64,000 nucleotides of DNA from Acidobacteriota bacterium (GTDB lineage: Bacteria; Acidobacteriota; Thermoanaerobaculia; UBA5066). Below, piece after piece: positions 25,261 through 47,840 of this stretch (positions are counted from its first letter, which is position 1; each line of letters starts with the position of its first letter). The translations under genes and the position numbers were made by a program. Below the pieces are notes generated by a model. The model saw only the letters and a program-made list of their open reading frames with translations, was not told the origin of the DNA and did no database searches. Location of the stretch: assembly GCA_008363385.1 (NCBI GenBank), contig RHKY01000031.1, forward strand, positions 6,522 to 70,521, written 5' to 3'.

Positions 25261-26238
25261 TCACCGCTCCCTGGGGAGCCCGGACGGCTCCTCGGCCAGC
25301 ATGGAAAGCAGCAGCCTCCCTTTCTCCTCCTCCGGGGGTCCGACTCGGGCCAGCTCCCGGACGTGCCCCTTCCTCTTCGACGAGAACAGGACGATCCCTC
25401 CCGGGTTCACGGCAGCAGCGGCCCCAAGCAGGACGCTCGCGAGCGAAGCCGGGTCGCCTGCGTCGATCCCGAGCCGCTCCGACCAGGCCCTTCTTCGGGC
25501 CTCCTGCTTCATCGACTCCCCGAGCCTCGGGAGGGCACCCCTGATCGCACCCTGGGTGATGACGAACGATCCGGAGTAGTCGGGGCGCCGATCCGAGCAC
25601 ACCGACCACTCGAACTGGAGCACCGGAGGAAGACCAGCGCCCGCGTCGACGACGCCGTCGACGAGCCGGCGTGGGCTTCCGATCCCCCACGCTCCGATCG
25701 CCCCCTTGGACACCTGCGCCTCCAGCGCTGCCCGCAGGTCGTCTCCCAGGGCCTCCACGCCCCCTTCGTGCACGAGGAACAGGTCGATCCGATCGCAGCG
25801 GAGCTTCCGGAGGCTCGCCTCGAGCGAAGCGAGCATCGCCGGGACCGAGTACGCCGTCGACTTCGGCGGTCTCCCGACCTGAGCCACCGCGCCGGCGGCC
25901 TCCACGAGGCGCGCCTTCGCGCGAGGGAACCTCGCCACGAGCGGCCTGAGGATCCCCCGAGCGACGTCCATGGCCGCCCTCGCCCTGGGGGGCGGCAAGC
26001 CGAACTTCGACGTCACCGTCACTTCCCCGCGATGACGCGCGACCAGCTCCCCGACCAGCGCTTCCGCCTCTCCCAGCCCGTACGGCGGCGCCGTGTCGAA
26101 GTGCCGTATCCCGGCGTCGAACGCCGTCTCGAGGAGGGCCAGCGACTCCCGCCGACTCCAGCCGCCGTGCAGCCCAGAGGATCCGTAGCCGATCGCGGTC
26201 GTGCCACCCGGTCGCCCTGGGAATCCGACTTGCCTCAG
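25261..26238 (-). CDS. Aldo/keto reductase family oxidoreductase
   Basis: LRQVGFPG...GYGSSGLHGGW...LETAFDAGIRHFDTAPPYG AKR N-terminus. No ATG/GTG/TTG in frame near the conserved N-terminus. CTG 26238..26236 with GGAGGG 7 nt upstream overlaps TGA of GMC gene. Confidence 0.65.
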   Translation of the reverse strand: MRQVGFPGRPGGTTAIGYGSSGLHGGWSRRESLALLETAFDAGIRHFDTAPPYGLGEAEALVGELVARHRGEVTVTSKFGLPPPRARAAMDVARGILRPLVARFPRAKARLVEAAGAVAQVGRPPKSTAYSVPAMLASLEASLRKLRCDRIDLFLVHEGGVEALGDDLRAALEAQVSKGAIGAWGIGSPRRLVDGVVDAGAGLPPVLQFEWSVCSDRRPDYSGSFVITQGAIRGALPRLGESMKQEARRRAWSERLGIDAGDPASLASVLLGAAAAVNPGGIVLFSSKRKGHVRELARVGPPEEEKGRLLLSMLAEEPSGLPRER

Positions 26239-27824
26239 CGGATTCCCTCCGCGCAGAGATGGTCGCCGAGGCGAAGCGCAAGAGCGATCGCCGTGTGTGT
26301 CGGATTGGAGAAGCTGCCGCTCGGGAAGACGGCGCTGCTGCAGACGTAGCCGTTCGCGGTGCCAAGGATCCTGAGGGACTCGTCGACGACTCCCGGTTCG
26401 GCGCCATCCGTCATCCGGGCGGTGCCCATGTCGTGGTAGTTGTCCCATCCCTTGCCGAGCACGGCGGGGTCACGCGCGGATACGAGTCGCTCGATCCTCA
26501 CCTCGGCGAGGCCCGTGCTCTCGAAGGCCGACTTCACGCTCTCCGCGAAGGTGGCGAGCGTCTCCACCTCGGCCTGACCGAGACGCCAGTCCAGCTGGGC
26601 ACGACGCATCCCAAAGGCATCCCTGTCCTCGGAGAGGGTGACGCGGCTCTCCGCGTCGGGAGCCTGCTCGATGAACGCGAGCAACCGGAAGCCGCGGTCC
26701 GAGGGGTTGAAGGCTCGCTTGTGGACGAGGTACCGCCAGGCCTGTCTTACGATCAGCGGCCCGGAACGGATGAAGCTCCGCGAGGCCTCCGCGAGGACTT
26801 TCGCGCTCGGCCGGCCCTGCAAGACTCTCCGGGCCGCGATCCGTACCTGATGCAGCACCTGCGCGCTGATCTCCGAGTAGAACAGAACCAACCCACCCGC
26901 GTTAAGAGAGCGCGCCTCCTCCTGTCTCGCGGCGCTCAGGTAGAGCCGCGGCTGGTACTTGAACCCGCGCAGGTAGACCATGTCCATCAGCCGATGAACC
27001 GCCGCGGGATTCCGCGGCACGACGTCCGCGCACTCGAAGGTGGGGTGGTCGAGGAAATACCGACCCAGGGCATCCGATCTCCGGGCCCAGGGCGGCTCGG
27101 TGCCGTCCTCGAGAGGTTGCATCAGGAGGCGCGCCGATTCGATGCCACCGACGCAGAAGACGAAACGACGGCCCGCAATTCGGATGCCGCGACCCTCGAG
27201 CGTTCTGGCTTTCGCCGACACGATGCGGTCCCCGGAGCAGGCGAGCGCCGTGACCGTCGCATGCAAGATGCAGCGAAGGCGGGACGAGCGCTCGACCTCG
27301 GCACCGTGCAGGCGAGCGAAGTCCGGCTGAGGGCACCATCTCGAGAGATGGGCCCGCAGGTCGGGTCCGAACTCGGGCGCGGACAGACCGATGGCTGACC
27401 AGACACCCTCGTCGTCCTTGACGCAGCCGCCTAGCCCCTCGTACTCGAGCGCCGTCCTGTAGTAGGGCTCGAGGTCGTCGTACGTGATGGGCCAGCCGCT
27501 GCTCCGGATCCAGTCCCGTCTCGCGAAGTCGATCGGGCCGAAGGGCAGGATCTGTCCGCCCCATTGGGTCGAGGTGCCGCCGAAGGCGCGGAATCGCCCG
27601 AGGTTGATCCCGTTGTGGTTCCGGCCCACGTTCTTGGACCGATAGAGATCCTGCAGCTCCGGCTCGACGGTGGGCCCGCCCGACTCGAGCATCACGACGT
27701 CCAGGCCTCGGCGAGACAACGCGAGCGAAAGCGTGATGCCCACCGGGCCGGCGCCCACGACGCAGACGTCCGTTTCCAGAAGCTCCGGCAGGCCGTCGGT
27801 ATGGAGATCAGCGAGCATCGTCAA
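26235..27824 (-). CDS. GMC-family FAD-dependent oxidoreductase
   Basis: DVCVVGAGPVGITLSLAL dinucleotide-binding motif. C-terminal GMC_oxred_C-like region (GTARM, active-site His region). 529 aa. Confidence 0.75.
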   Translation of the reverse strand: MTMLADLHTDGLPELLETDVCVVGAGPVGITLSLALSRRGLDVVMLESGGPTVEPELQDLYRSKNVGRNHNGINLGRFRAFGGTSTQWGGQILPFGPIDFARRDWIRSSGWPITYDDLEPYYRTALEYEGLGGCVKDDEGVWSAIGLSAPEFGPDLRAHLSRWCPQPDFARLHGAEVERSSRLRCILHATVTALACSGDRIVSAKARTLEGRGIRIAGRRFVFCVGGIESARLLMQPLEDGTEPPWARRSDALGRYFLDHPTFECADVVPRNPAAVHRLMDMVYLRGFKYQPRLYLSAARQEEARSLNAGGLVLFYSEISAQVLHQVRIAARRVLQGRPSAKVLAEASRSFIRSGPLIVRQAWRYLVHKRAFNPSDRGFRLLAFIEQAPDAESRVTLSEDRDAFGMRRAQLDWRLGQAEVETLATFAESVKSAFESTGLAEVRIERLVSARDPAVLGKGWDNYHDMGTARMTDGAEPGVVDESLRILGTANGYVCSSAVFPSGSFSNPTHTAIALALRLGDHLCAEGIR

Positions 27825-33665: not shown

Positions 33666-33695
33666 CGACCCAGGGGACGCCGAGGAGGGCCGCCT

Positions 33696-33983
33696 TCAGG
33701 TGCCCGCCTCCGCCTCACGGACCATCTCGGGCGTGATCGCGGGTGCGTCCTCGGGGACGTCGAACACCGGAAAGCCGCCCCGTTCCCGGACCTCACCCGA
33801 GGCCGTTGGACCGCCTCGCGCGGGGGCGGCGAGGCCCTCGTCGGCCAGCGCCTGTTCGAACTCGGGATCGAGCTTGGCGCATTCCTCTCCCAGGCGTCGG
33901 TGCCTACGCCGCGATCTGCTCGTACGAGAACTCCGGGATCCCTCTCGATCCAGGCCTGGGAGGCTACGGCGGACCTTCTTCAT
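33696..33983 (-). CDS. Hypothetical small protein upstream of mntA/hepT
   Basis: 95-aa ORF with Arg-rich N-term. Only positional support. Confidence 0.25.
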   Translation of the reverse strand: MKKVRRSLPGLDREGSRSSRTSRSRRRHRRLGEECAKLDPEFEQALADEGLAAPARGGPTASGEVRERGGFPVFDVPEDAPAITPEMVREAEAGT

Positions 33984-34149
33984 CGTCTTCGCGTTCGACA
34001 GGATCCAGGGGGGCCAGAGCAGCCCCTCGTGCCGTGTTCGTCGGCGGCGATTCGCACCCGATCAGGCGACCCTGGCTTCCACGTACTCGGCCCGGGTGGC
34101 GGGCACGTCCTCGCTGCGTCTGGACGAGGCCGGCGCCGACGAGCCGAGG

Positions 34150-34542
34150 TCACCCTCGGCCGAGGTCCCCCGCCCGGCGCGCGGCCTTCCGCATCAAGGC
34201 GAGGTACGCCGGGAGGCGCGAGTAGACCTCTTCGGCCATCGCGGCCTTGTAGAGGTGGCTGGTCCTGTTGCGGTCCTCCAGCATCTGGAAGACGACGTCG
34301 TCGCCTTCGTCCAGGAGCCCGATCTGAAACGCAGCCCGGAAGGCCTCCCGTGGGGAAAAGAGCCGCAGGCCCTCCGCCTCCGAGCGCACCTTCAGAGTCT
34401 TCCAGAGAAGCTCGAACGAGAACTCGAAGCGCTGGATGGCTGCGTCCCGGACGATGTCGGACTTCGGCTCCCGCAGCGCCTCGTCGAGCCTGGCCAGCGC
34501 CGACTCGAGGTCCGACAGGAGCGATTCAAGCGGCGCGGTCAT
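34150..34542 (-). CDS. HI0074-type nucleotidyltransferase substrate-binding (HEPN) protein
   Basis: IQRFEFSFELLWKTLK...NRTSHLY pattern of NTase_sub_bind family. Follows cognate NTase. Confidence 0.7.
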   Translation of the reverse strand: MTAPLESLLSDLESALARLDEALREPKSDIVRDAAIQRFEFSFELLWKTLKVRSEAEGLRLFSPREAFRAAFQIGLLDEGDDVVFQMLEDRNRTSHLYKAAMAEEVYSRLPAYLALMRKAARRAGDLGRG

Positions 34543-34846
34543 GCAGGGGCACCACGTCTCGAAGGGCGATCTCGCGGAACTGCGCGTCGACCTGCCGGAA
34601 GTCGACGACGTCCACTCGGGCCAGGATCGGGGCCGCGTCGAGGAGGTCGCGGAGGTCCGCCATGTCCCGGGCGTCGAGCGGGCGGCCCGCGTCCACCCCG
34701 ATGTCGTAGTCCGAACGGACGTCGGCAGAGCCCCGGGCCCGCGACCCGAAGAGGAAGACGCGCAGGGGACGGTATCCGGAGAGCGGTCCGGCTACGGCAG
34801 CATCGACCGCCTCCAGCAGCACTTCGGGTAGATCGGTTCGCGTCAT
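34526..34846 (-). CDS. HI0073-type nucleotidyltransferase
   Basis: LFGSRARGSADVRSDYDIGV NTase motif. 106 aa. Confidence 0.75.
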   Translation of the reverse strand: MTRTDLPEVLLEAVDAAVAGPLSGYRPLRVFLFGSRARGSADVRSDYDIGVDAGRPLDARDMADLRDLLDAAPILARVDVVDFRQVDAQFREIALRDVVPLHDRAA

Positions 34847-34998
34847 CGCGTTGTCAGCTCACCCTGGACTTCGGTCAGGCCCGCGGCGCGGTCAGGCCGC
34901 GAGGCACGGGAGGCGGCTCAGGTTCCCAGCCGGCCTTCTCGAAGGCCTTCGCCGCGGATCTCCCGGAGATGTTGCCGAACCGCGACACGAATCCGCCT

Positions 34999-35214
34999 TC
35001 AGACGGCCACGACGATGGGCGTACCCTGCGAGTCGGAGCTGCGCGCCGACAGGGCCTTCTGATCTTCGGCCCAGAGCCAGGCCCGAATCGCCTCCTGGAT
35101 GTTCTCGAGCGCCTCCTTCTCGTCCTTCCCCTGGGAGACGCATCCCGGCAAGGCAGGACACTCCACCACGAACCAACCTTCCTCGTCCTTCTCCAGAGTC
35201 ACGTGAAACAACAC
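34999..35214 (-). CDS. HicB-like antitoxin (UPF0150 family)
   Basis: HVTLEKDEEGWFVVECPALPGCVSQGKDEKEALENIQEAI, the HicB N-domain. GTG start. Confidence 0.6.
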   Translation of the reverse strand: MLFHVTLEKDEEGWFVVECPALPGCVSQGKDEKEALENIQEAIRAWLWAEDQKALSARSSDSQGTPIVVAV

Positions 35215-35235
35215 GGTCCTGCCTCCGATCGAATC

Positions 35236-35331
35236 CTACGCTCCCACACCGAGGTCCCGGGTCTCGACGACGTCGCCGGCCCGGAACTCGATGTAGAGGG
35301 TGTCGGTCTCGACGAAGTACTCGACCTTCAC
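35236..35331 (-). pseudogene. Truncated DUF2283-like ORF (31 codons)
   Basis: My translation: VKVEYFVETDTLYIEFRAGDVVETRDLGVGA*, matching the N-half of DUF2283 proteins (MKIEYDKEADALYI...). GTG overlaps TGA of the HEPN gene (GTGA). Normal length is about 65-75 aa. Confidence 0.3.
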
Positions 35332-35750
35332 GGCTTGCCGCCTTCCAGCAGGCTCGTCGCCAGGTCCACGGCCTGTCGCGCGATCGAGACGGCGTCCTCG
35401 GCGTCATCGCGTCCGAACAACTCCCACGGCGTGCGCCAGGTCCCCTCGTCTCCGTAGTCGGATGCGACGTGCACGGCTGCTCCCAGCCGCTCGGCGAGGG
35501 TTGCCAGCTTGTCGAGGGCGCTCTGGCTCGCGGTGGCCGTCGATTCGGCAGCGAGCTGCCGCAGCAGGCTCCCGGGGGCATGAGTCCTTCCGACCGGTCC
35601 GGCATTGGCGAGGACCGCCTTCGCGGCGTTCTCCGTCGCGAGCTCGCTGGTGTCGACGCACGAACGCCAACGGCCCAGATCGATGTCCTGGGTGGCCTCG
35701 CCCAGGTACCCCTTCGCCAGCTTGATCCGGTAGGCGACTTCCTCGTTCAC
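35328..35750 (-). CDS. HEPN domain protein (partner of upstream MNT)
   Basis: C-terminal 140 aa of track ORF. HEPN-like helical protein. GTG 35750 overlaps TGA of MNT gene (GTGA). Confidence 0.6.
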   Translation of the reverse strand: MNEEVAYRIKLAKGYLGEATQDIDLGRWRSCVDTSELATENAAKAVLANAGPVGRTHAPGSLLRQLAAESTATASQSALDKLATLAERLGAAVHVASDYGDEGTWRTPWELFGRDDAEDAVSIARQAVDLATSLLEGGKP

Positions 35751-36223
35751 CGCTTCGCTCCATCCAGAGCAATGGGCTGCGCGTCCGCCGACCTCGGCCT
35801 GACCCTCCAGACTTCGCCGTCGGGCGTGCGGACCCGGAAGAGGCCGCGAGCGAACATCCTGGCCCGCAAGGCTTCGAGTCGCCGGCTGGCGTGCCCCTCG
35901 GGGTCGAAGAGGACGTCCCCGTCGAGGGCGATGTCGAAGAGGAGCGACGACTCGTGCCTCTCCAGCTCGTCCAGCGTCCACACGATCGGCGAGACCATCC
36001 CCCGCCACGACTCGGGCAGGCTCATGACCAGCTCCACGACCTCGCGCACTGGACGCTCATGCCGGGCCCGGATCACGACGAGAAGGTCCCAGTCGCTCCC
36101 AGGCTCGGCCTCGCTCCGCGCTCTCGAGCCGAACGAGACGATGGCGACGAGGCGGCCGGCGAGCGAGCGCCGGAACGCCGCGACCAGCTCCTCACGCGAC
36201 GGGCAGAGCGATTGGAGGTTCAC
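35747..36223 (-). CDS. Minimal nucleotidyltransferase (MNT) domain protein
   Basis: VSFGSRARSEAEPGSDWDLLVV Pol-beta NTase motif. 158 aa. Confidence 0.75.
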   Translation of the reverse strand: MNLQSLCPSREELVAAFRRSLAGRLVAIVSFGSRARSEAEPGSDWDLLVVIRARHERPVREVVELVMSLPESWRGMVSPIVWTLDELERHESSLLFDIALDGDVLFDPEGHASRRLEALRARMFARGLFRVRTPDGEVWRVRPRSADAQPIALDGAKR

Positions 36224-36275
36224 TGACTTCGGGGCCTTCTCTTCGCGAGCTCGGAAGGATGCCTGAGCGACTGTC

Positions 36276-36329
36276 TCACGGCGCCTGGACGAGGCCGGCG
36301 CCGACGTCGGTGGCCAGGAGCGGGAGGCG
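36276..36329. repeat. Direct repeat copy B: duplicated 3' end of the S8 protease gene (50/54 identical to 36885..36938)
   Basis: tcacggcgcctggacgaggccggcgccgacgtcggtGGCCaggagcgggaggcg. On the minus strand it encodes RLPLLATDVGAGLVQAP*, identical to the protease C-terminus, with only synonymous differences. Confidence 0.85.
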
Positions 36330-36331
36330 GC

Positions 36332-36562
36332 TCAATCCCGGAGGAAGTCCTCGGGGTCGATCCCGGCCTGGCGCAGGATGGCCCGCAGGGTACCTTCGGG
36401 AATATCGCCCGGGTGGTTGGGAAGGGTCGTGTACCTGTTTCTTGCGGGGTGATACCAGATCTCGTGGCTCCCGGCCGCTTGCCGATCGAACTCGAATCCG
36501 CGACGCCTCAGCCGGGCAGCGATCTCCCGATAGCGGAATCCGGCAAGCCTCCCCAGGATCAG
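36332..36562 (-). CDS. hicA: HicA-family mRNA interferase toxin
   Basis: Not in ORF track (no ATG/GTG/TTG). My translation: LGRLAGFRYREIAARLRRRGFEFDRQAAGSHEIWYHPARNRYTTLPNHPGDIPEGTLRAILRQAGIDPEDFLRD*. Conserved GSH...HP and GTL..IL.QAG motifs. Candidate CTG starts at 36562 (overlapping hicB TGA) or 36556 (GGAGG 6 nt upstream). Confidence 0.6.
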   Translation of the reverse strand: MILGRLAGFRYREIAARLRRRGFEFDRQAAGSHEIWYHPARNRYTTLPNHPGDIPEGTLRAILRQAGIDPEDFLRD

Positions 36563-36789
36563 CCTCCGACGACGAGCGTCAGATCCAGCGGCTCGCTGAT
36601 GGGCGGCGGTTCGTCGAGTGGCTCCCGACCGGCCTGCGCGTCGAGGAGCTTCCTCGCAACGTCGCGAGCGATCTCGAGGGTCTCCGCGATCGTCCGCCCC
36701 TGGGCGACCAGCCCCTGTACGTCTTCCGATGACGCCAGGAAGACGCCCTCGGGCAGCCGCTCCACGTGAACTCGGATGATCCGTTCCAA
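36559..36789 (-). CDS. hicB: HicB-family antitoxin
   Basis: VHVERLPEGVFLASSEDVQGLVAQGRTIAETLEIARDVARKLLDA. TTG start. Confidence 0.7.
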   Translation of the reverse strand: MERIIRVHVERLPEGVFLASSEDVQGLVAQGRTIAETLEIARDVARKLLDAQAGREPLDEPPPISEPLDLTLVVGG

Positions 36790-36884
36790 GGGACAGCTCC
36801 TTCAGCGTCCGGGCTGCCGGCCAGTCGGATCGGCCTCCCGGACATGCTTCCGGCTCATTCTATGGTGGGTCGCGCGCGGGCCCT

Positions 36885-38215: not shown

Positions 38216-38442
38216 GATTCTCACGCCCCGGCGGTCAGCCGGGGCGTCTCGTCTCGGAGGGACCGAGTTCCCGGGGCCACTCCGGCCGCGTAGGCCTGCC
38301 CGCAGCGCGACGCACGTCGTTGGCCATCCGTTGGAGGACGAGGAGGATGCCGAGCTTCCGCTCTATGGGGAGTCGGGCCAGCTCCAGCCGCCTCTGGCGC
38401 TTCGCCTCGAAGATGGCGATCTCGGGTCCGCTCACGACGACG

Positions 38443-38961
38443 TCAGGTCCCACGGACACCTCCTGACCACGCGGCCCAACGCTCGGCGAGCCCGAACCTC
38501 TCGAGAATCGAAGCGAGCCGGCGCGCATCCACCTCCGCTTCCTCGAGCAGCTGTTGCGCCCGGACACGGTCCTTCGACCGCCCCGTCTGAACAGCAATGG
38601 CGAGAAGGTACTCCACCCGGACGACCCTCGTCGGAGTCCCTCCAACCGTGTGCGGCTGCGCGTTGCGCGCGGCCTCCAGCACCAGGGAGTTGTACGCCGG
38701 AAGGAGCTGCACCGGGATGCCATGAAGAACGACGTGCTCGCCCTGCGGGACTCCGCCGCGACTCTTCAGGAATGCCAGCTGCGGCTCCATCGTGACGACG
38801 GCAGCGTTCGCCTGGCTCTCGGATAGAACGACGAAGACGTCGAGGTCGTGCGTCGCGACCGGTTCAGCGTAGAAGAGCGCGGCCACAGCGCCCCCGATCG
38901 CGTACGTCTCGACGAGACCCGCCTCGACGAGCTCGTTCAGGACTTCGAGAACGGCTTCCAT
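38443..38961 (-). CDS. Pol-beta-superfamily nucleotidyltransferase-like protein (AbiEii/DUF2204-like)
   Basis: From M38 of track ORF: YAIGGAVAALFYAEPVATHDLDVFVV (G[GS]-x(n)-DxD). 172 aa. Paralog of the next gene. Confidence 0.5.
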   Translation of the reverse strand: MEAVLEVLNELVEAGLVETYAIGGAVAALFYAEPVATHDLDVFVVLSESQANAAVVTMEPQLAFLKSRGGVPQGEHVVLHGIPVQLLPAYNSLVLEAARNAQPHTVGGTPTRVVRVEYLLAIAVQTGRSKDRVRAQQLLEEAEVDARRLASILERFGLAERWAAWSGGVRGT

Positions 38962-38971
38962 CGTGATTCGT

Positions 38972-39538
38972 TCAGGCTCGCTGCTCGCCCGGCGGGAGGA
39001 TCTTCTCGAGGAGGTGAGTGACGCCGGCGCTGGCTGCCTCGCGCCGGATGTAGGCGAGGTCGATGGCCTCACCGCAGCCAGCGAGGACGGAGGCCGCGTC
39101 TCGGAGCTGGCGCTCGGATCCGGAGAGGGCGGCCCACTTGAGCTTCGAGACGATGGAGCCCTCCGGGGAGATGACGTAGACGTCGACGTCGAACAGGCGC
39201 GCCCCCCTCCGCCTCGCGAGCTCGCCGCGCTCGAAAGGCCGATCGGGGCACACGATCAAGTCCGCCTTCCATCCGGACTCGAGGTGGATGACATTGAGCA
39301 TCCCCCGGGTCCTCAGGGCCTCGGCGGCCTCGTCCCGGCTGACGTAGAAGCCCTCCTTCAGCTCGTCCAGCAGACGGCTCAGCTGCGCTGGCCGCGGGTC
39401 GAAGACGACGTCGACGTCCTGGGTGGCTCGTGGCTCGCCGTAGAAGGCGGAGGCGGTGGAGCCAGTGATCATCCAGGGTATCCCCGCGGCATTCAGGGCA
39501 GCCGCGAGCCGGACGAGGATGTCGCGTGGAGAGGTCAT
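38972..39538 (-). CDS. Pol-beta-superfamily nucleotidyltransferase-like protein (AbiEii-like), paralog
   Basis: From M73 of track ORF: ITGSTASAFYGEPRATQDVDVVFDP. ...SIVSKLKWAALSGSERQLRDAASVL resembles the AbiEii C-region. ATG overlaps stop of upstream small ORF. Confidence 0.5.
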   Translation of the reverse strand: MTSPRDILVRLAAALNAAGIPWMITGSTASAFYGEPRATQDVDVVFDPRPAQLSRLLDELKEGFYVSRDEAAEALRTRGMLNVIHLESGWKADLIVCPDRPFERGELARRRGARLFDVDVYVISPEGSIVSKLKWAALSGSERQLRDAASVLAGCGEAIDLAYIRREAASAGVTHLLEKILPPGEQRA

Positions 39539-39813
39539 CGGCTCGAGCCCGCGGCGCCTGTGAAGCGATCCGCCAGTGCGTCGCCGTAGATGCGCCGGAA
39601 GAGCTCTGTGCGAAGCCGGAAGTCGTCGTACTCCGGGTGACGCATCCGGATGCCCGCGAGGACGGCCTCGCGGGCGAGCTCCGACGCCGCGAAGGCTGCC
39701 TCGACACGCCCCTCCGGGCCGAGCCGGGCGTGGATCTCCCGGACCTTTCTCCAAGCCGCCTCCGAAGTGTCGAGGGGGCGAGAGAAGGGATGGGGATGTT
39801 CTGGCGAGGTCAC
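39535..39813 (-). CDS. Hypothetical 92-aa protein, first gene of NTase-paralog operon
   Basis: ORF with balanced composition. Positional coupling to downstream NTase gene. Confidence 0.35.
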   Translation of the reverse strand: MTSPEHPHPFSRPLDTSEAAWRKVREIHARLGPEGRVEAAFAASELAREAVLAGIRMRHPEYDDFRLRTELFRRIYGDALADRFTGAAGSSR

Positions 39814-39871
39814 CGGTAGATGGAGGCTCGATGGCCTACGCGGAACCTGTAGGTACCGAGCGCCGGCTGAG

Positions 39872-40123
39872 TCAGATGCTCGGCGCTCCGAAGAGCCTCT
39901 CGTGGGAATGCTTCTTTCCGGCTGCGTACTGGGCGCGGGCCTCGCGAATGCCCGCGAGATAGCGCGGGGAAGACGCCGCGAGGAGCTCCTCGAGGAACAC
40001 CTCTCGGTCTGCCTTCTTCATCCGCTGAACGGCGGAGATGATCACGGCCGGGCTCAGGTCCATCCGAACTGTCACCGGGGCCGTCCGGTCGCCGACGGAG
40101 GTCGTCTCTCGCTTCATGGTCAT
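39872..40123 (-). CDS. Hypothetical small protein (RHH/ParD-like antitoxin candidate)
   Basis: 83 aa. ...REVFLEELLAASSPRYLAGIREARAQYAAGK weakly resembles ParD-type antitoxins. Follows relE. Confidence 0.3.
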   Translation of the reverse strand: MTMKRETTSVGDRTAPVTVRMDLSPAVIISAVQRMKKADREVFLEELLAASSPRYLAGIREARAQYAAGKKHSHERLFGAPSI

Positions 40124-40174
40124 GCGCGTTCTATCCGGGGTCCGCTCCGCTCCCGCGTTTACGGCTCTTCCGGA

Positions 40175-40453
40175 TCAGCGCCCCAGGAGGCGCGCCACCC
40201 TCGCGTAGACGTCGCGGCGATGGCCGACCGTGACCACGACGACTGTGACCTTCTCTCCCTGGACCTGGTAGACGATCCGCCAGTCGCCGGTGCGCCAGGA
40301 GCGGAGGCCTTTGAGCTCGAAATGGAGCGGCTTTCCGAGAGTCGGGTCGGACGCGAGCTCGAGGACCGCTCTCCGGACTCTCTCGCGGACCGCAGGGTCG
40401 AGCTTCCGGATCGCGTCTCGGGCCGAGTGGGTGTAGACGACCGTCCAGGTCAA
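40175..40453 (-). CDS. relE: RelE/ParE-family toxin
   Basis: MTWTVVYTHSARDAIRKLDPAVRERVRRAVLELASDP...LRSWRTGDWRIVYQV typical RelE/ParE. ATGA overlap with antitoxin gene. Confidence 0.8.
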   Translation of the reverse strand: MTWTVVYTHSARDAIRKLDPAVRERVRRAVLELASDPTLGKPLHFELKGLRSWRTGDWRIVYQVQGEKVTVVVVTVGHRRDVYARVARLLGR

Positions 40454-40704
40454 CCCCAGACCTCGTCTTGACCGACGACGCGCCCCTCACGGAGGTCCTT
40501 CAGGCCCGAGCGGATTCGCTTCATCAACCGCGGGTCGGAAAGGATCTCCAGGGTCTCCAGGAGCCCCTCGTACTCGTCGACGGAAACCAGCACACCCGCC
40601 GGGTGCCCCGACCGGGTGATGACGAGTGGCTCGCCGAGGTCTTCAACTCGCGCCAGCAGCCCAGCCAGGTGGGCCTTCGCTTCGGAGAGAGGGACCTGCT
40701 TCAT
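40450..40704 (-). CDS. yefM: Phd/YefM-family antitoxin
   Basis: MKQVPLSEAKAHLAGLLARVEDLGEPLVITRSGHPAGVLVSVDEYEGLLETLE canonical YefM. Confidence 0.8.
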   Translation of the reverse strand: MKQVPLSEAKAHLAGLLARVEDLGEPLVITRSGHPAGVLVSVDEYEGLLETLEILSDPRLMKRIRSGLKDLREGRVVGQDEVWG

Positions 40705-40734
40705 GACCTGATTATGGACTAGAATTCAGACCAC

Positions 40735-42669
40735 TCAGTCCAGCGGGATCTCGGACTTCCAGTCGCCCTTCTCGTGGTAGGGGGGCTGGCCTTCCTTGTC
40801 GAGGACGAAGGTCTCGAGGACCAGGGCGTCCATGTTCGTCCGCATGAAGCAGCGGTAGCTGTCCTCGGGGGTGCAGACGATCGGCTCGCCGCGGACGTTG
40901 AAGCTGGTGTTGACGACGACCGGGCAGCCGGTCTTCTGCCGGAAGGCCTCGAGGATCTCCCAGTAGAGGGGGTTCGTCTCCTTGCGGACGGTCTGGATCC
41001 GGGCGGAGTAGTCGACGTGCGTGACGGCCGGGATCTCGGACCGGACGACGTTGAGCTTGTCGATCCCCCAGAGGGCCTCTTCCTGGGACGTCATCTTCCG
41101 CTGCCGCTTCTTCGCCACGTCGGCCACGAGGAGCATGTACGGGCTGTCGACGGCGAGGTCGAACCACTCGGCGGCGTGCTCGCGCAGGACCGACGGCGCG
41201 AACGGCCGGAACCCTTCGCGGAACTTGATCTTGACGTTCATCGTGGCCTGCATCCTCGGCAAGCGGGGGTCGCCCAGGATGCTGCGCGAGCCGAGCGCTC
41301 GCGGGCCGAACTCCATCCGCCCCTGGTGGAGGCCGACGACCTTCTCCTGCGTCAGGAGTTCGGCGACGGCGCCGGGGAGAGCTTCGCGCTCGACGCGGCG
41401 GTACGGGAGCTTCCGCGCGTCGAGGAAGGCCCGGATCTCCTCCTCGGTGTGGCGCGGGCCGAGGTAGGCCCCCTTCATCCCGTCGGCGTAGGGCGCGGGC
41501 TGGCCGTTCCCCTTCGCGGGTGCGACCCACGTGCCGGCCTTCTCGGGGCTCGTCCGCGGGTTGCCGAGGTAACGGTGCCAGAGCGAGAGGGCGATGCCGA
41601 CGGCTCCCCCGGCGTCCCCGGCCGCGGGCTGGATCCAGACATTCTCGAACGGCCCCTCGCGCAGGATCCGCCCGTTGCCGACGCAGTTGAGGGCGACGCC
41701 GCCGGCCATGCAGAGGTTCGTCAGGCCCGTCTCCCTGTGCGCGAAGCGGGCCATCTTCAGCATCGACTCCTCGGTGACCTCCTGGATCGACCGGGCGAGG
41801 TCGAGGTCCTTCTGTGTCATCTTCGTCTCGGGCTCGCGCGCCGGGCCGCCGAAGAGCTTCTCGAAGGCGCGGTTGGTCATCCGCAGGCCGTCGGCGTATC
41901 CGAAGTAGTCCTGGTTGAGCCGGATCGAGCCGTCGTCGCGGACCTCGACGAGCTTCTCCCGGATGAGGCCGACGTACTTCGGCTCGCCGTAGGGGGCAAG
42001 GCCCATGACCTTGTACTCGCCGGAGTTGACCTTGAAGCCCGTGTAGTACGTGAAGGCGCTGTAGAGGAGCCCGAGGCTGTCGGGGAAGCGGAGCTCGCGG
42101 AGGAGCGTCAGCTCGGTGCCGCGGCCGTAGCCGAGGGAGCTGGTCGCCCACTCGCCGACGCCGTCCATCGTGAGGATGGCGGCCTCCTCGAACGGCGAGG
42201 GGAAGAACGCGCTCGACGCGTGGCTCTCATGGTGGTCGCCGAAGAGGACCTTGCACGGCAGCGCCGCGCCCCGCTTCTTCGCAGCCTTCTCGTCGGTCTC
42301 GCCCGCGACCTTAGCCAGCTCGGTCCGGAGGACGTCCGGCAGCCAGAGCTTCTCCTTCATCCAGAGCGGCATCGCCTGGACGAACGAGGCGAAGCCCCGA
42401 GGGGCGTAATCGGTGTAGGTCTCCAGCAACCGGTCGAACTTGGTGAGCGGCTTGTCATAGAAGCCGACGAGGTCGACCTGCTCGGGGGTGATCCCGGCCT
42501 CCTTCAGGCACCAGGCGACGGCGTGGCGCGGGAAGCGGTGGTCGTGCTTCTTCCGCGAGAAGCGCTCTTCCTGCGCCGCGGCGAGGATCTCCCCGTCGAC
42601 GACGAGACACGCCGCCGAGTCGTGGTAGTAGGCCGAGATGCCGAGGATTCTGGTCAGGTTGCTGCTCAG
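40735..42669 (-). CDS. Carbamoyltransferase (NodU/CmcH/SxtI family)
   Basis: Track ORF (564 aa from TTG 42429) lacks the conserved N-domain. In-frame upstream translation gives SSNLTRILGISAYYHDSAACLVVDGEILAAAQEERFSRKKHDHRFP... with no ATG/GTG/TTG. CTG 42669..42667 overlaps TGA of the SxtK-like gene. Confidence 0.75.
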   Translation of the reverse strand: MSSNLTRILGISAYYHDSAACLVVDGEILAAAQEERFSRKKHDHRFPRHAVAWCLKEAGITPEQVDLVGFYDKPLTKFDRLLETYTDYAPRGFASFVQAMPLWMKEKLWLPDVLRTELAKVAGETDEKAAKKRGAALPCKVLFGDHHESHASSAFFPSPFEEAAILTMDGVGEWATSSLGYGRGTELTLLRELRFPDSLGLLYSAFTYYTGFKVNSGEYKVMGLAPYGEPKYVGLIREKLVEVRDDGSIRLNQDYFGYADGLRMTNRAFEKLFGGPAREPETKMTQKDLDLARSIQEVTEESMLKMARFAHRETGLTNLCMAGGVALNCVGNGRILREGPFENVWIQPAAGDAGGAVGIALSLWHRYLGNPRTSPEKAGTWVAPAKGNGQPAPYADGMKGAYLGPRHTEEEIRAFLDARKLPYRRVEREALPGAVAELLTQEKVVGLHQGRMEFGPRALGSRSILGDPRLPRMQATMNVKIKFREGFRPFAPSVLREHAAEWFDLAVDSPYMLLVADVAKKRQRKMTSQEEALWGIDKLNVVRSEIPAVTHVDYSARIQTVRKETNPLYWEILEAFRQKTGCPVVVNTSFNVRGEPIVCTPEDSYRCFMRTNMDALVLETFVLDKEGQPPYHEKGDWKSEIPLD

Positions 42670-42824
42670 AACAGCGTGTAGATGAACGGCGCGACGGCCG
42701 AGCCCTGCGAGACGACGAGGAGGAGGCCGACGAGGAGCAGGACGATGACGATCGGGGCGAGCCAGTACTTCTTGTTGTGCTTCAGGAACTCGCCGAACTC
42801 GGAGACGACTTGCAGCTTGCTCAT
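42666..42824 (-). CDS. DUF5989/SxtK-like small membrane protein
   Basis: 52 aa MSKLQVVSEFGEFLKHNKKYWLAPIVIVLLLVGLLLVVSQGSAVAPFIYTLF. Family characteristically adjacent to carbamoyltransferases. Confidence 0.55.
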   Translation of the reverse strand: MSKLQVVSEFGEFLKHNKKYWLAPIVIVLLLVGLLLVVSQGSAVAPFIYTLF

Positions 42825-42832
42825 CGCGGGCC

Positions 42833-43249
42833 TCAGTAGAGCTTCTCGTAGTGCTTCGGGTCGAGGTGGCGCGCCGGGTAGGGGTGCCAGTAGCTGTCGG
42901 CGGGGGCCGAGCGGCGGCGGAGCGGGTCCGAGCCGGTCAGGCGGCGAAAGATCCCGATCGGCGTGACGACGAGGTAGAAGACGACGAAGAGGACGACGCG
43001 GGTCATCACCCAGCCGAGCCCCTCGGCGAGCGTCATCCAGCCGCGGTGAGGGAGGGCGAGGGCCTTCGGCGCGGCCGCGCCGAGGAGGAAGAGGAGCGCG
43101 CCGATGCCGAGGAGGACAGGCGCCGCGACGGGGAACCGTCCGCGGAAGAGCCACCACCCGCCGATCGCGGCGAGGATCCCGCCCACCAGGAGCCCGAACG
43201 AGCGCAGCTCGCGGACGGAGGCGGGGGGGTGAGGCTGGGCTGGGCTCAT
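42833..43249 (-). CDS. SxtJ-like membrane protein
   Basis: 138 aa, 3-4 TM helices. Position and size match SxtJ partners of SxtI/SxtK-like genes. Confidence 0.5.
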   Translation of the reverse strand: MSPAQPHPPASVRELRSFGLLVGGILAAIGGWWLFRGRFPVAAPVLLGIGALLFLLGAAAPKALALPHRGWMTLAEGLGWVMTRVVLFVVFYLVVTPIGIFRRLTGSDPLRRRSAPADSYWHPYPARHLDPKHYEKLY

Positions 43250-43265
43250 CGAGCTCCCTGCAGAT

Positions 43266-43297
43266 CGAAAGTGATACTTTCGTTTATCCTGATAAAC
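43266..43297. promoter_or_regulatory. Divergent promoter region with two perfect palindromes: CGAAAGT-gat-ACTTTCG and GTTTATC-ct-GATAAAC
   Basis: Read directly. AT-rich 54-bp intergenic between sxtJ-like (minus) and AAA ATPase (plus) starts. Confidence 0.4.
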
Positions 43298-43302
43298 TGA
43301 GG

Positions 43303-44460
43303 TTGATGCTTCGACGGTCCCTGGCTCTCCCGTCTCGCCCCGAGACGACCTTCTCCCTCTGGGGACCCCGCCAGACCGGGAAGAGCACGCTCCTGCGCGC
43401 CACCTACCCGGACGCGACGTGGATCGACCTGCTGAAGTCCGACGAGATGGCGCGCTACCTGTCCCGGCCCGCGCTGCTTCGCGAGGAGCTGGAGGCCAGG
43501 CCCGCCACGGGAGTCGTCGTCGTCGACGAGGTGCAGAAGGTGCCGGCGCTCCTCGACGAGATCCACTGGCTGATCGAGAACCGCAGACGTGTCTTCGCGC
43601 TCTGCGGGTCGAGCGCGCGCAAGGTCCGGCGGTCCCACGCGAACCTGCTCGGAGGGCGCGCCGTCCGCTACGAGCTGACCGGCCTCGTGGCGCCGGAGCT
43701 GGGAACGGCGTTCGACCTGGACCGGATGCTGAACCACGGAACGCTTCCCCGGCACTACCTCTCCGACGAACCGCGGCCGCTCCTGCGGGCTTACGTGGGG
43801 GACTACCTGAAGGAGGAGATCGCGGCCGAAGGGATCGTCCGGAGGATCCCAGCCTTCTCGGGCTTCCTGGCGGCGGCCGCGCTCGCGGACGGCGAGATGG
43901 TCAGCTACGCGACGATCGCGCGGGACTGCGGCGTCTCGGCGCCCACGGTGAACGGGTACTTCGAGATCCTCGTCGACACGCTGCTCGGCCGGTTCGTCCC
44001 CTCGTTCACGCGCCGGCCGAAGCGCCGCGTGATCCAGGCCCCGAAGTTCTACTTCGCCGACGTGGGCGTCGTGAACGTCCTGGCCCGCCGCGGCCGGGTC
44101 GAGCGCGGGTCCGAGCTGTACGGGAAGGCGTTCGAGAGCTGGGTGCTGCACGAGCTGTGGGCCGCGTCCCGCTACCGGGAGCTCTACTTCGAGATCTCGT
44201 ACTGGAGGGTGGCCAGCGGGTTCGAGGTGGACTTCGTCCTGGGAGACATGGAGGCCGCCGTCGAGGCGAAGGCGGTCGAGCGCGTCACGTCCGATCACCT
44301 GAAGGGGCTTCGTCAGCTCGCCGTCGACCACCCGGAAACGCGGCAACGGTGGCTCGTCTGCCTGGAGCCCCGGGCCCGGAGGACCGAGGACGGGATCGAC
44401 ATCCTGCCGTACCGCGAGTTCGTCCGGCGCATCTGGAACGAGGAGCTGCCTCGCGGCTGA
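43303..44460 (+). CDS. AAA-family ATPase with DUF4143 C-terminal domain
   Basis: Walker A GPRQTGKST, Walker B VVVVDEVQ. C-terminal region typical of AAA_14+DUF4143 proteins. ATG at 43306 is the likely start. Confidence 0.75.
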   Translation: MMLRRSLALPSRPETTFSLWGPRQTGKSTLLRATYPDATWIDLLKSDEMARYLSRPALLREELEARPATGVVVVDEVQKVPALLDEIHWLIENRRRVFALCGSSARKVRRSHANLLGGRAVRYELTGLVAPELGTAFDLDRMLNHGTLPRHYLSDEPRPLLRAYVGDYLKEEIAAEGIVRRIPAFSGFLAAAALADGEMVSYATIARDCGVSAPTVNGYFEILVDTLLGRFVPSFTRRPKRRVIQAPKFYFADVGVVNVLARRGRVERGSELYGKAFESWVLHELWAASRYRELYFEISYWRVASGFEVDFVLGDMEAAVEAKAVERVTSDHLKGLRQLAVDHPETRQRWLVCLEPRARRTEDGIDILPYREFVRRIWNEELPRG

Positions 44461-45597: not shown

Positions 45598-45990
45598 TCA
45601 GGCCGCAGCAACCAGAGGGATCGAGTAGAGCCCGAACGACGGGTCCGCCGTCATGACGGTCAGCTTCTCGACGAGCGCCTGCGCGACGAGAAGCCGGTCG
45701 AACGGGTCCCGGTGGTGCATAGGAAGCGACGCGACCTGCAGGGCATGCGAGTGAGCGATCGGAAGCGGCTCGAGCGCCTGGGCCGCCATCCGGGAGGGCA
45801 CGAACGTGGAGGGTGGCTCCGGGAGGGTCAGCTTGCCCAGGGCGTACTTGATCGCGATCTCCCACGCGGATGCGGCCGAGAGGTAGACGGTGTTCCGGCG
45901 CGAGACCAGGAGCCTGCGCGCTTCCGGCGACAGTCGTTCCGGCTCCGCGAGGCTCCAGAGCCAGCAGTGCGTGTCGACGAGGAGCTTCAC
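45598..45990 (-). CDS. vapC: VapC PIN-domain toxin
   Basis: MKLLVDTHCWLW...(D) N-term, PFDRLLVAQALVE..LTVMTAD acidic residues. ATGA overlap with antitoxin. Confidence 0.8.
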   Translation of the reverse strand: MKLLVDTHCWLWSLAEPERLSPEARRLLVSRRNTVYLSAASAWEIAIKYALGKLTLPEPPSTFVPSRMAAQALEPLPIAHSHALQVASLPMHHRDPFDRLLVAQALVEKLTVMTADPSFGLYSIPLVAAA

Positions 45991-46220
45991 CCTTCGAAGT
46001 CCCGGAGGACGTCCTCGGGAAGCGGAGCGTCGAAGTCGTCGGCGATCCGGATCTTCCCGGCGTCGAGGCCCAGCGGACGCCGCGGGCTCGACGCGTCGAA
46101 CGGGACCAGCCGGGCCACGGGCTTCCCGGCGCGAGCGATGACGATCTCCTCGCCGGCCTCGACGCGGACGAGAAGCTGCGAGAGGCGGGTCTTCGCGTCG
46201 TGAACGTTGACCTCGGTCAT
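45987..46220 (-). CDS. vapB: Phd/YefM-type (VapB) antitoxin
   Basis: MTEVNVHDAKTRLSQLLVRVEAGEEIVIARAGKPVARLVP. Confidence 0.7.
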   Translation of the reverse strand: MTEVNVHDAKTRLSQLLVRVEAGEEIVIARAGKPVARLVPFDASSPRRPLGLDAGKIRIADDFDAPLPEDVLRDFEG

Positions 46221-46241
46221 GGCAGTAGACTAAGTCCTCGA

Positions 46242-46670
46242 CTAAGTTAGATCAAGGGATTCGACCACCGTCGCCGCGAAGCGCTCGAGGTCGCCGATGT
46301 TCTTCTCGACGATGGCGCGGACGACGGCGGGGTCGAGGGTGGTGTAGTCGTGGACCGCGACGTTCCGGAAACCGACCACGGAGCGCATGGCGACGAGGAG
46401 TTCGCCGGACAGGGCGCCGCGGTTCGCGAGGATCTCGAAGGCGTTCCGCGCGTCGCGCGGGACCTCCCAGCCGTTCTCGGCGATCAGGTGGTTCGCCAGG
46501 TCGATGCAGGCCTCGGCCGCCCGCTGGAGGTTGAGGACGGCGAGGTCCTGCCGCATCCACTCCTTGTCGGGCTGCGGCACGAGGGCCGGCAGGTCGCGGA
46601 TCGTCCCGGTGGCCTTCCGGATGGTGGAGGCCTTCGCCAGGACGACGTCGCGGTCGGCCTTCAACGGCAC
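46242..46670 (-). CDS. hepT: HepT-like HEPN toxin (DUF86)
   Basis: R-x4-HxY motif RNVAVHDY. 142 aa. Confidence 0.75.
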   Translation of the reverse strand: MPLKADRDVVLAKASTIRKATGTIRDLPALVPQPDKEWMRQDLAVLNLQRAAEACIDLANHLIAENGWEVPRDARNAFEILANRGALSGELLVAMRSVVGFRNVAVHDYTTLDPAVVRAIVEKNIGDLERFAATVVESLDLT

Positions 46671-47074
46671 GTGCGGGCCCAGGCGGCCATCGCCTGCTCC
46701 ACGGGGCGGCGCTGGATCTTCACGTCGAAGTAGAGGGCGGGCGTGTACATCCGGAACTCGGCGAGCGCCCGGGCGTCCTCCACGAGGACCGGCACGCCGT
46801 GCTCGAGGACCTGCATCCTCACGATCGCGTCTCCGCGGCGGAGGTCGAGGAGGTCGACGGTGCGGTGGAGGTGCCGCTCGAGGCGCTGCGAGATCTCGAG
46901 CCGCTCGTCCGGCGAGAGGGCGCGATCGGCCCAGAGGGCGACGTCGACGTCGCTCTCGGGGCCGAGCCTCCCCGCCGCGGCCGAGCCGTGGACGTACGCG
47001 AAGCGGACCCCGACCGGGGCGTCCTGGAGGACGTCGCGGACGGCGGCGGCGATGTCTGGGTCGAGGGCGGTCAA
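46661..47074 (-). CDS. mntA: MntA-like nucleotidyltransferase antitoxin
   Basis: YVHGSAAAGRLGPESDVDVAL NTase motif. Confidence 0.75.
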   Translation of the reverse strand: MTALDPDIAAAVRDVLQDAPVGVRFAYVHGSAAAGRLGPESDVDVALWADRALSPDERLEISQRLERHLHRTVDLLDLRRGDAIVRMQVLEHGVPVLVEDARALAEFRMYTPALYFDVKIQRRPVEQAMAAWARTCR

Positions 47075-47081
47075 GGACGCG

Positions 47082-47330
47082 TCAGGAGACCGGGGAGCCC
47101 GGGGGGCCGATCGAGACGTCGCGCGCGAGGTCGACGGCCTCGACGCCGTCGAGGTCCGTGAGGCGGCCGACGACGTCCCCCGGCGCGCGGCCGGTGATCG
47201 TGCCGACCGACTCGAGGACGCCGTCCACCGTCATCCCGGCAGCCCGCAGGCGGCCGGCGACCTCGTGGAGGCGATCGCCGTGGAGCTCATCGACGGTGAC
47301 GACGACGGGGACGAGGCTGGTCGCGGTCAT
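47082..47330 (-). CDS. Hypothetical 82-aa protein (first gene of mntA-hepT operon)
   Basis: Strong RBS GGAGGTGA 4 nt before ATG. Its RBS plus first 29 codons are duplicated 602 bp upstream. Confidence 0.4.
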   Translation of the reverse strand: MTATSLVPVVVTVDELHGDRLHEVAGRLRAAGMTVDGVLESVGTITGRAPGDVVGRLTDLDGVEAVDLARDVSIGPPGSPVS

Positions 47331-47340
47331 CGCTCACCTC
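47242..47340. repeat. 99-bp perfect direct repeat, copy 1 (identical to 47844..47942)
   Basis: gcccgcaggcggccggcgacctcgtggaggcgatcgccgtggagctcatcgacggtgacgacgacggggacgaggctggtcgcggtcatcgctcacctc read at both loci. Confidence 0.9.
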
Positions 47341-47488
47341 CTTTTTCGTCTCCGGCTCCAGCGCGGCGGCGGAGCAAGAAGTCCCGGCACGCCACTGCTC
47401 GCCCGTGCAGCCCGTCTCCATGGGCGAGTCGGGCGACGGCCAGGTCCTCCTCGGCGAAGGCGAGCCAGGTCTCAGGCAGCCCGCTCAT
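47327..47488 (-). pseudogene. Truncated HEPN-domain gene fragment (about 54 codons) ending at the repeat boundary
   Basis: MSGLPETWLAFAEEDLAVARLAHGDGLHGRAVA resembles a HEPN N-terminus. Frame terminates inside repeat copy 1. Overlaps MNT stop. Confidence 0.35.
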
Positions 47489-47840
47489 ACAGCACGCGGC
47501 CGCTCCCGAGGATCTCGTCCCGCACGAAGGGCCGCTCGGCGACGAGTCGCTCCAGCTCGGCCGGGGTGTAGGCCAGGATGTCCGTGGCGACGACCGGGCG
47601 GAGGATCCGGCGAAGCTCGGCCAGGCGCCGGAAGAACGGTGCGTCCGTATCCAGGACGACGACGAGGTCGATGTCCGAGTCCTCTTGGGGGGCTCCTCGC
47701 GCAACGGATCCGAAGACCAGGACCGTCCGGACCCGGTGGTCCCGGGACAGGATCCCCACGTAGCGAGCCAGCTCCGCGCGAAGGAGCGCGAGGCGATCGC
47801 TCGGATCAGCCGAGTCCGGGGCGGAAAGCGAAGTCAACAT
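47472..47840 (-). CDS. Minimal nucleotidyltransferase (MNT) domain protein
   Basis: VLVFGSVARGAPQEDSDIDLVVV motif. ATG overlaps stop of a 32-codon leader ORF created by repeat copy 2. Confidence 0.75.
   Translation of the reverse strand: MLTSLSAPDSADPSDRLALLRAELARYVGILSRDHRVRTVLVFGSVARGAPQEDSDIDLVVVLDTDAPFFRRLAELRRILRPVVATDILAYTPAELERLVAERPFVRDEILGSGRVLYERAA

Follow-up and report, generated by a model that had tools for sequence, protein, structure and literature searches.

Weak non-AUG start codons can set low expression, as they do for E. coli infC (AUU, autoregulated through IF3) and pcnB (AUU). Initiation at CUG, AUU, AUC and AUA has been measured in E. coli, and among annotated genes non-canonical starts amount to ~0.05% (bioRxiv 10.1101/063800). 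In Deinococcus deserti, a CTG start has been confirmed by an N-terminal peptide and an ATC start has been verified by proteomics, with CTG accounting for 1 of ~260 N-terminally verified proteins (PMC4007540). In translational coupling, ATGA and TGATG stop/start pairs serve termination-reinitiation (Huber et al. 2019, PMC6728339; review PMC12548453), and ribosomes that have terminated can re-initiate on either side of the stop (PMC9955659). Our search of the literature found no direct precedent for CTG as the restart codon in such coupling. Here we analyse a carbamoyltransferase gene (CT) of an Acidobacteriota bacterium, located in a 64,000-nucleotide stretch of contig RHKY01000031.1 (the window). 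This gene is intact and under selection, and we consider it probable that it is translated from a near-cognate CTG (42657-42655) within a set of translationally coupled genes.

The locus shares several traits with these systems. As in the near-cognate starts verified in D. deserti (PMC4007540; Baudet et al. 2010), CTG takes the place of the initiator Met in a conserved protein, and the bacterium is likewise rich in GC; as in the E. coli set, CTG is among the few codons with measurable initiation by fMet-tRNA. Unlike those cases, the present one is predicted from sequence, CTG starts occur at a far higher density (3 of ~61 genes), and all of them lie at stop/start junctions. These junctions resemble ATGA/TGATG pairs in that the genes are co-directional and spaced by -4 to +8 nt, and the CT junction in particular resembles coupling that is independent of a Shine-Dalgarno (SD) motif, as it has none. 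Relatives carry ATGA/TGATG versions of the junctions. The difference lies in the restart codon, which is CTG here (CTGA, TGA-N2-CTG and TGA-N8-CTG).

The carbamoyltransferase gene and its start codon

The features around the CT start are the following:

40735..42657, minus strand: CT coding sequence (NodU/CmcH/TobZ family), 640 aa from CTG 42657, with Pfam PF02543 and PF16861
42655..42657, minus strand: CTG, the most likely CT initiation codon, where orthologues start; separated by 8 nt from the DUF5989 stop, with no SD upstream
42667..42669, minus strand: CTG proposed in the first-pass annotation, overlapping TGA 42668-42666 (CTGA); would serve instead of, or besides, CTG 42657 and yield 644 aa
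42427..42429, minus strand: TTG, the first canonical in-frame CT start, used by Prodigal-type callers; 564 aa, without 76 conserved residues
42666..42824, minus strand: gene for a DUF5989 (SxtK-like) small membrane protein, 52 aa (Pfam PF19451, 6e-25), whose stop TGA 42668-42666 is the proposed CT re-initiation point
42833..43249, minus strand: gene for an SxtJ-like membrane protein (Pfam PF19588, 8e-16), with its stop 8 nt before the DUF5989 ATG; first of the coupled trio

The CT frame closes with a stop at 40735, and the nearest in-frame stop upstream is TGA 42939 (minus strand). Between this stop and TTG 42429 there are 170 codons, ~76-80 of which encode the conserved N-terminus, and none of them is ATG, GTG or TTG. 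Because of this no upstream extension of CT is possible, and a longer N-terminus was ruled out. This bears out the starting claim of the first-pass annotation, namely that a conserved N-terminal domain precedes any canonical start. Indeed, the match to Pfam Carbam_trans_N (PF02543) begins at the R codon at 42651, aligns positions 1-346 of the 346 of the profile (E = 3.3e-97) and covers the N-terminal Kae1/ASKHA-like domain end to end; Carbam_trans_C (PF16861, the YrdC-like carbamoyltransferase domain) is likewise aligned over positions 1-170 of 170 (E = 3.5e-73). The closest solved structures are 7xb6, GdmN, NovN and TobZ. The CT sequence matches 7xb6, GdmN and TobZ at 1e-67 to 5e-82, and the aligned region of the best match opens at CT residue 11. 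The 640-codon frame is intact, with zero frameshifts and zero internal stops. By its domain content CT is of the NodU/CmcH/TobZ type, a predicted O-carbamoyltransferase.

Near the conserved N-terminus, the only start-like codons of translation table 11 are CTG 42669, CTG 42657, ATC 42648 and ATC 42639. The first-pass annotation had taken CTG 42669 as the apparent CT start, with no other start-like codon suitably placed. The overlap that it described with the DUF5989 stop (TGA 42668-42666) is there, but the codon is not alone, the three others being in frame as well. Comparison with the 119 best full-length homologues (73-79% identical; 638-660 aa, mostly 639-641 aa) shows that 112 begin exactly 3 residues before ILGIS (M/V/L-T-x-ILGIS), that is, at CTG 42657. 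The two closest open with MTRILGLS, where the window reads L-T-R-I-L-G-I-S from this codon. The distance equivalent to CTG 42669 (4 residues before ILGIS) is used as start in just 2 of the 119, and the orthologous start is hence CTG 42657 rather than the codon proposed before. At the DNA level, the comparison of orthologues that had been suggested as a check reveals a canonical start at the equivalent position: ATG, GTG or TTG is present within 8 codons of ILGIS in 79 of 82 CT ortholog loci of other genomes, while the ILGIS position itself is the start in 1 of 85 loci. The species-representative genomes that we scanned do not include that of this organism, the best match being 75% identical.

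The junction with DUF5989 is conserved in its architecture. The same DUF5989-CT order is found in 14 relatives that keep DUF5989 directly upstream, and in 13 of them the distance between the DUF5989 stop and the CT start is -4 to +18 nt (117 nt in the remaining one, L008). The junction reads TGATG in the closest relative and TAGTG or TGA-C-GTG in others; in the window it is TGA-GCAGCAAC-CTG, with a spacing of +8. No SD-like tetramer was found within 24 nt of the CT start in 13 of the 14 relatives or in the window, and such tight junctions devoid of SD imply that the CT genes of these 13 relatives use the same re-initiation mechanism. We rejected a promoter or terminator located between the DUF5989 and CT genes, as no promoter-like or minus-strand terminator-like site was found in 40500-43500. 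A special RNA structure at the junction was rejected too, the folding energy being that of shuffled sequences (z = +0.42). The coding signal of CT, as scored by codon usage, extends to a boundary at 42669.

The same three families (PF02543 with PF16861, PF19588 and PF19451) are adjacent in the saxitoxin genes sxtI-sxtJ-sxtK. Unlike in the saxitoxin cluster, the order here is sxtJ-sxtK-CT, and the genes belong to a polysaccharide/glycosyltransferase cluster of an Acidobacterium and not to a toxin pathway. The same polysaccharide cluster also encodes a paralogue of CT (582 aa, starting at TTG; contig L094, 17198-18946), 6.5 kb beyond the window's left end, and the contig of the closest relative (L084) likewise carries two carbamoyltransferases.

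The first-pass annotation had named two findings that would undo its case, a point error in the sequence and an N-terminal domain that orthologues can do without. Across 6-10 kb, both CTGs included, independent assemblies of SRR25316600, SRR8109491 and SRR8109493 match the window with 100% identity, and the region of the aldo/keto reductase gene (AKR, described below) is identical in contigs from SRR25316600, SRR25316602, SRR8109492, SRR26196969 and SRR7051043. A contig of GCA_021405005.1 is identical to the window's left end over the 13.4 kb that they share. Altogether, Logan contigs of at least 7 runs (SRR25316600/602, SRR8109491-3, SRR26196969/70, SRR7051043) are 100% identical wherever they overlap the window, and the independent contigs that span the start sites, 3 for CT and 5 for AKR, carry the same CTG. 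Sequencing error is excluded as the source of the CTGs. As for the N-terminal domain, the 76 residues ahead of TTG 42429 are conserved in all homologues. Against four orthologues, the ratio of nonsynonymous to synonymous substitution rates (dN/dS) is 0.09-0.17 for CT codons 2-76 vs 0.08-0.31 for the other 564 codons. These low values demonstrate that a region which a canonical-start model terms non-coding has evolved as coding sequence. A gene that decays after losing its start would be expected to show otherwise; here the frame is intact and the N-terminal dN/dS is not raised, although a very recent start loss may be compatible with both observations.

The start at CTG 42657 is already present in public records. 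An exact-sequence look-up returned the 640-aa CT with M1 (MTRILGIS...) as KAA0253178.1 and MCE7956621.1, under the name 'hypothetical protein EDX89_15330' of Acidobacteria bacterium; the 644-aa (CTG 42669) and 637-aa (ATC 42648) products were absent from the protein collection in this look-up. The Logan call, of the Prodigal type, is truncated to 564 aa (P0001). The organism corresponds to the metagenome-assembled species 'Acidobacteria bacterium ACD' (unclassified Acidobacteriota).

The aldo/keto reductase and hicA junctions

Two other genes of the window present the same situation. The features concerned are:

25261..26238, minus strand: AKR coding sequence, 325 aa from CTG 26238 (Pfam PF00248), in CTGA overlap with the stop of a GMC-oxidoreductase gene
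26245..26250, minus strand: GGAGGG, SD-like, 6 nt upstream of CTG 26238
36332..36556, minus strand: hicA toxin coding sequence, 74 aa from CTG 36556 (Pfam PF07927, 1.6e-18)
36563..36567, minus strand: GGAGG SD motif within the final part of hicB, 6 nt ahead of CTG 36556
36559..36789, minus strand: hicB-like antitoxin gene, with stop TGA 36561-36559, 2 nt before the hicA CTG

For AKR, the CTG 26238 indicated in the first-pass annotation is confirmed, in a CTGA overlap and with its GGAGGG 6 nt upstream (given there as 7 nt). PF00248 begins 15 residues past this codon, and the MKHVLLPG with which orthologues open aligns residue for residue with LRQVGFPG in the window, which places CTG 26238 at the orthologous Met. 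In the relative L100, the GMC-AKR junction is ATGA where the window has CTGA. The sole canonical option upstream, ATG 26448, would entail a 214-nt overlap with the GMC gene, where no coding signal is seen. It is from this ATG that NCBI records KAA0253158.1, MCE7956316.1 and MDL1949665.1 begin AKR, yielding 395 aa with a 70-residue extension. This is probably a mis-annotation, as both the orthologues and the ATGA of L100 indicate CTG 26238. The Logan call (P0121, 251 aa) is in turn shortened by 74 residues. One metagenome protein from ENA (P0142, 382 aa) appears to be an in-frame fusion of the C-terminus of a GMC oxidoreductase with AKR in a relative. We rejected it as evidence for such a fusion, since local compensating frameshifts and a short out-of-frame stretch (PARIRHVRAPWWLW) suggest indel errors in the contig.

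In the stop-to-stop frame of hicA (36862..36332) there is no canonical start anywhere. The two candidates put forward before, CTG 36562 and CTG 36556, are both present, and the second is the better one. Indeed, hicA orthologues open with MGRLAGFRYREI, which matches CTG 36556 at the orthologous Met. Two NCBI contigs of metagenome-assembled genomes (MAGs), L101 (1498-1503; GCA_035431205.1) and L102 (395-400; GCA_035357625.1), carry a hicBA pair 77% identical in DNA, with the same CTG directly after the hicB stop and in the same context, GGAGGCTGA(G)TC-CTG. That the codon is shared at 77% DNA identity implies that the hicA CTG is old and has been maintained. L101 and L102 are 99.3% identical, yet one was assigned to Thermoanaerobaculia and the other to 'Ca. 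Bipolaricaulis', in another phylum, so that either the module is mobile or the binning is likely to be wrong. The junction of the window recurs in metagenome contig WBZR01009847.1, and a metagenomic hicA (L143, Ga0315273_10023997) has an independent CTG start, in the form TAA-CTG. The 74-aa HicA, which needs the start at CTG 36556, is recorded in NCBI (KAA0253224.1 and others); outside NCBI we found no call for hicA.

A near-cognate start kept across diverged homologues (window and L101/L102) is also what infC and pcnB display, and in hicA it would hold synthesis of the toxin below that of the antitoxin. Unlike in infC and pcnB, the codon is CTG rather than AUU, and regulation linked to IF3 is a trait of infC.

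In all three genes, therefore, CTG is found at the start codon of the orthologues, and no usable ATG, GTG or TTG exists at or upstream of the conserved N-terminus: none in CT, none in the whole hicA frame, and in AKR only ATG 26448. The expectation that standard callers would truncate or miss these genes is correct for Prodigal-type callers. It is not for NCBI, which holds the 640-aa CT and the 74-aa HicA and whose annotation reflects the CTG start for 2 of the 3 genes.

hicBA lies in a region (~33300-36800, 38400-40710 and 45600-47800) unusually dense in toxin-antitoxin and nucleotidyltransferase/HEPN pairs, among them MNT/HepT, HEPN, PhdYeFM-ParE, PhdYeFM-PIN and HicBA, which are interleaved with the polysaccharide biosynthesis cluster. 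The window also encodes a 676-aa UDP-glucose/GDP-mannose dehydrogenase (30906-32936, minus strand) with a match to Pfam Intein_splicing between its central and C-terminal domains, and this protein probably contains an intein. A 1017-aa protein (22127-25180, minus strand) is a fusion of an asparagine synthase (GATase_7 and Asn_synthase) with a GT4 glycosyltransferase domain.

Frequency of putative CTG starts

To survey the window we used a codon-usage model trained on it and applied to its 58 predicted genes. The coding signal begins within ~25 codons of the canonical start for nearly all of them, and of the real genes only CT and AKR depart from this, apart from a gene at the edge of the window (59649-63992), whose 5' end runs to that edge. 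hicA, too short for this survey, is the third case and was found separately, and the 6.5 kb beyond the window's left end hold no further one; a look-up on the right-hand side gave no sequence beyond the window. CTG starts hence account for 3 of ~61 genes in a region of ~70 kb, or 4.9% (95% confidence interval 1.0-13.7%). If the rate were that of annotated non-canonical starts (0.05%), at least three cases would be met with a probability of 4e-6; this probability is 2e-3 at the rate implied by D. deserti N-terminomics (~0.4%), and 0.04 at a rate of 1.2%. Use of CTG by the organism with some frequency, which the first-pass annotation had raised, is suggested by 3 of ~61 genes, within the scope of a 70-kb region. 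Start usage is roughly 24 ATG, 25 GTG and 6 TTG, from which it follows that it is already relaxed in this organism. Use of SD is moderate (21-31 of 55 genes vs a background of 22%), and the window contains no tRNA genes; infC, the initiator tRNA and 16S rRNA are absent from the sequence covered here.

We complemented the survey with censuses of two families, both independent of gene callers. Among the 82 CT loci, a single clear CTG was found, in L045 (2010-2015; JASFRN010000157.1, a Gemmatimonadales MAG). In this independent case CTG occupies the orthologous MNILGIS start, in CTGA overlap with the stop of an upstream glycosyltransferase gene and preceded by GGGAGAGGGAGA (SD), and the frame offers no canonical start closer than 95 codons upstream. 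The two remaining outliers start canonically, 13 and 18 codons upstream. The 76 resolved hicA loci comprise 55 ATG, 15 GTG, 4 TTG and 2 CTG, one of the latter being the strain of the window itself and the other the independent L143; a missing canonical start is always replaced by CTG and never by ACG, AAG or similar codons. In nearly all of these 76 loci a stop immediately precedes or overlaps the start. In the two censuses, other bacteria included, CTG is thus found at about 1-2% of such coupled junctions. That it is the sole clear exception in both speaks for function having been kept and against decay at random.

Proposed re-initiation at CTG and the competing explanations

The three CTGs of the window lie at +8 (CT), -4 (AKR) and +2 (hicA) from the upstream stop, and all upstream genes are co-directional. 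With a stop within a few nucleotides and an architecture kept in relatives, all three are suitable for the re-initiation by coupling that the first-pass annotation had offered as an explanation. We infer that CTG is decoded as a start, at some efficiency, and that upstream translation is needed for it. In such a mechanism, ribosomes that finish DUF5989 would re-initiate at the nearest acceptable codon (termination-reinitiation, or translational coupling), and initiator fMet-tRNA would read CTG 42657 to produce a 640-aa protein opening with MTRILGIS. In the tightly packed sxtJ-DUF5989-CT operon, where CT has no promoter or SD of its own and the spacer is 8 nt, termination-reinitiation would be independent of SD. 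At the other two junctions, the CTGA overlap of AKR (CTG 26238) and the CTG 36556 located 2 nt after the hicB stop, strong SD motifs at optimal spacing (GGAGGG and GGAGG, respectively) would help. For hicA, a weak start behind the antitoxin gene is a plausible way to hold the toxin below the antitoxin. Lower stringency of IF3 in the lineage may contribute; overexpression of IF3 reduces re-initiation.

Several observations weigh against initiation at CTG 42657 in a coupled operon. The codon lacks an SD, and in E. coli CUG initiates very weakly, reaching 1-2%, or 0.02-3%, of the level of AUG (bioRxiv 10.1101/063800). In an E. coli reporter of SD-less coupling, an AUA restart codon failed to initiate the downstream reading (PMC9955659), which implies that coupling does not automatically license near-cognate codons. 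The closest relatives of both CT and AKR carry ATG, so the two CTGs arose in this lineage and may be young mutations of slightly deleterious effect; the copies available all come from one clone and are silent on whether CTG is maintained at the population level. A spacing of -5 to +10 nt is found at 22 of the 57 same-strand junctions of the window (39%), the three CTGs included, so that finding all three at coupled junctions has only weak significance (0.39^3 = 0.057). Finally, CTG 42669 and ATC 42648 may be the actual CT start or additional ones.

Initiation at CTG 42669, alone or besides 42657, would give the 644-aa product (MSSNLTRILGIS...) from a CTGA analogous to the common ATGA. The geometry is that of the AKR start and of the independent L045, the coding signal in codon usage reaches 42669, and re-initiation is possible on both sides of a stop (PMC9955659). 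However, in AKR and L045 the CTG that overlaps the stop is the orthologous Met, whereas in CT the orthologous position is 42657; the equivalent distance in 2 of 119 homologues, the missing SD and the absence of the exact product from the protein collection also speak against it, and we consider this start rather unlikely. The ATC codons 42648 (the I of ILGIS) and 42639, near-cognate codons of table 11 as well, are far less credible still. Both ATCs are in frame beside the beginning of the domain, and ATC initiation has been verified in D. deserti (PMC4007540), but they lack an SD and are farther from the stop than CTG 42657, a start at the ILGIS position occurs in 1 of 85 ortholog loci, and the exact 637-aa product is absent from the protein collection. 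Hardly any weight can be given to a last group, in which the sequence or assembly is wrong, the 564-aa product from TTG 42429 is the real one, or CT is fused to DUF5989 by frameshifting or readthrough. The 564-aa product is indeed the output of Prodigal-type callers, but it is deprived of 76 residues that are conserved in all homologues, are present in the solved structures and, at codons 2-76, are under purifying selection. An error is contradicted by the identical sequence in at least 7 runs and in the GCA_021405005.1 contig wherever they overlap. The fusion was rejected: the junction, ACG CTG TTC TGA, has no slippery heptamer, readthrough of the TGA ends 4 codons on in the wrong frame, no unusual RNA structure is found (z = +0.42), and the starts of the relatives are all separate.

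A different explanation is erosion of start codons, in which ATG, GTG or TTG recently became CTG in a clonal GC-rich (70%) lineage, leaving CT, and perhaps AKR, barely translated and on their way to becoming pseudogenes. This would fit accessory regions under weak selection, such as the polysaccharide cluster and the toxin-antitoxin islands, with many toxin-antitoxin modules and glycosyltransferases around. The ATG of the closest relatives at the CT and AKR junctions, the identity of all copies of the strain, which makes recent fixation possible, the agreement of TTG-to-CTG and A-to-C changes with GC-biased mutation, and an output of CUG at or below 3% of that of AUG in E. coli (bioRxiv 10.1101/063800) all point in the same direction. 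In contrast, the 76 N-terminal codons of CT have no frameshift, no internal stop and no raised dN/dS. Furthermore, the three start losses all went to CTG and none to the 6 single-base neighbours that are not starts (chance roughly 0.003-0.04), and CTG is the only non-canonical start codon in the hicA census and the only clear exception in the CT census. The hicA CTG, kept across 23% of DNA divergence, does not fit erosion. We therefore regard erosion as improbable and retain initiation at CTG 42657 as the favoured reading for CT.

The CTG initiation proposed for these genes exemplifies a phenomenon already known, and we do not see in it a system of a new kind. What goes beyond the ordinary, and is modestly interesting, is the local density of CTG starts and their exclusive tie to stop-start junctions, also in the independent cases: all those found, three in the window and two or three elsewhere, lie -4 to +8 nt from an upstream stop. 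It is conceivable, though we hold it only tentatively, that CTG is a regular restart codon at termination-reinitiation junctions in this lineage, and perhaps in GC-rich bacteria generally, the first-position mismatch being accepted with or without an SD. Prodigal-type calls, the basis of most metagenome catalogues, strip CT of 76 conserved residues and AKR of 74 and miss HicA, and start calling anchored on orthologues corrects all three. If CTG were such a regular restart codon, it would open a few percent of the coupled genes vs ~0.05% in current annotations, and these genes would be systematically truncated or lost in metagenomes by callers restricted to ATG, GTG and TTG. The observations made here also yield a testable hypothesis, namely that re-initiating ribosomes are laxer about the first base of the start codon.

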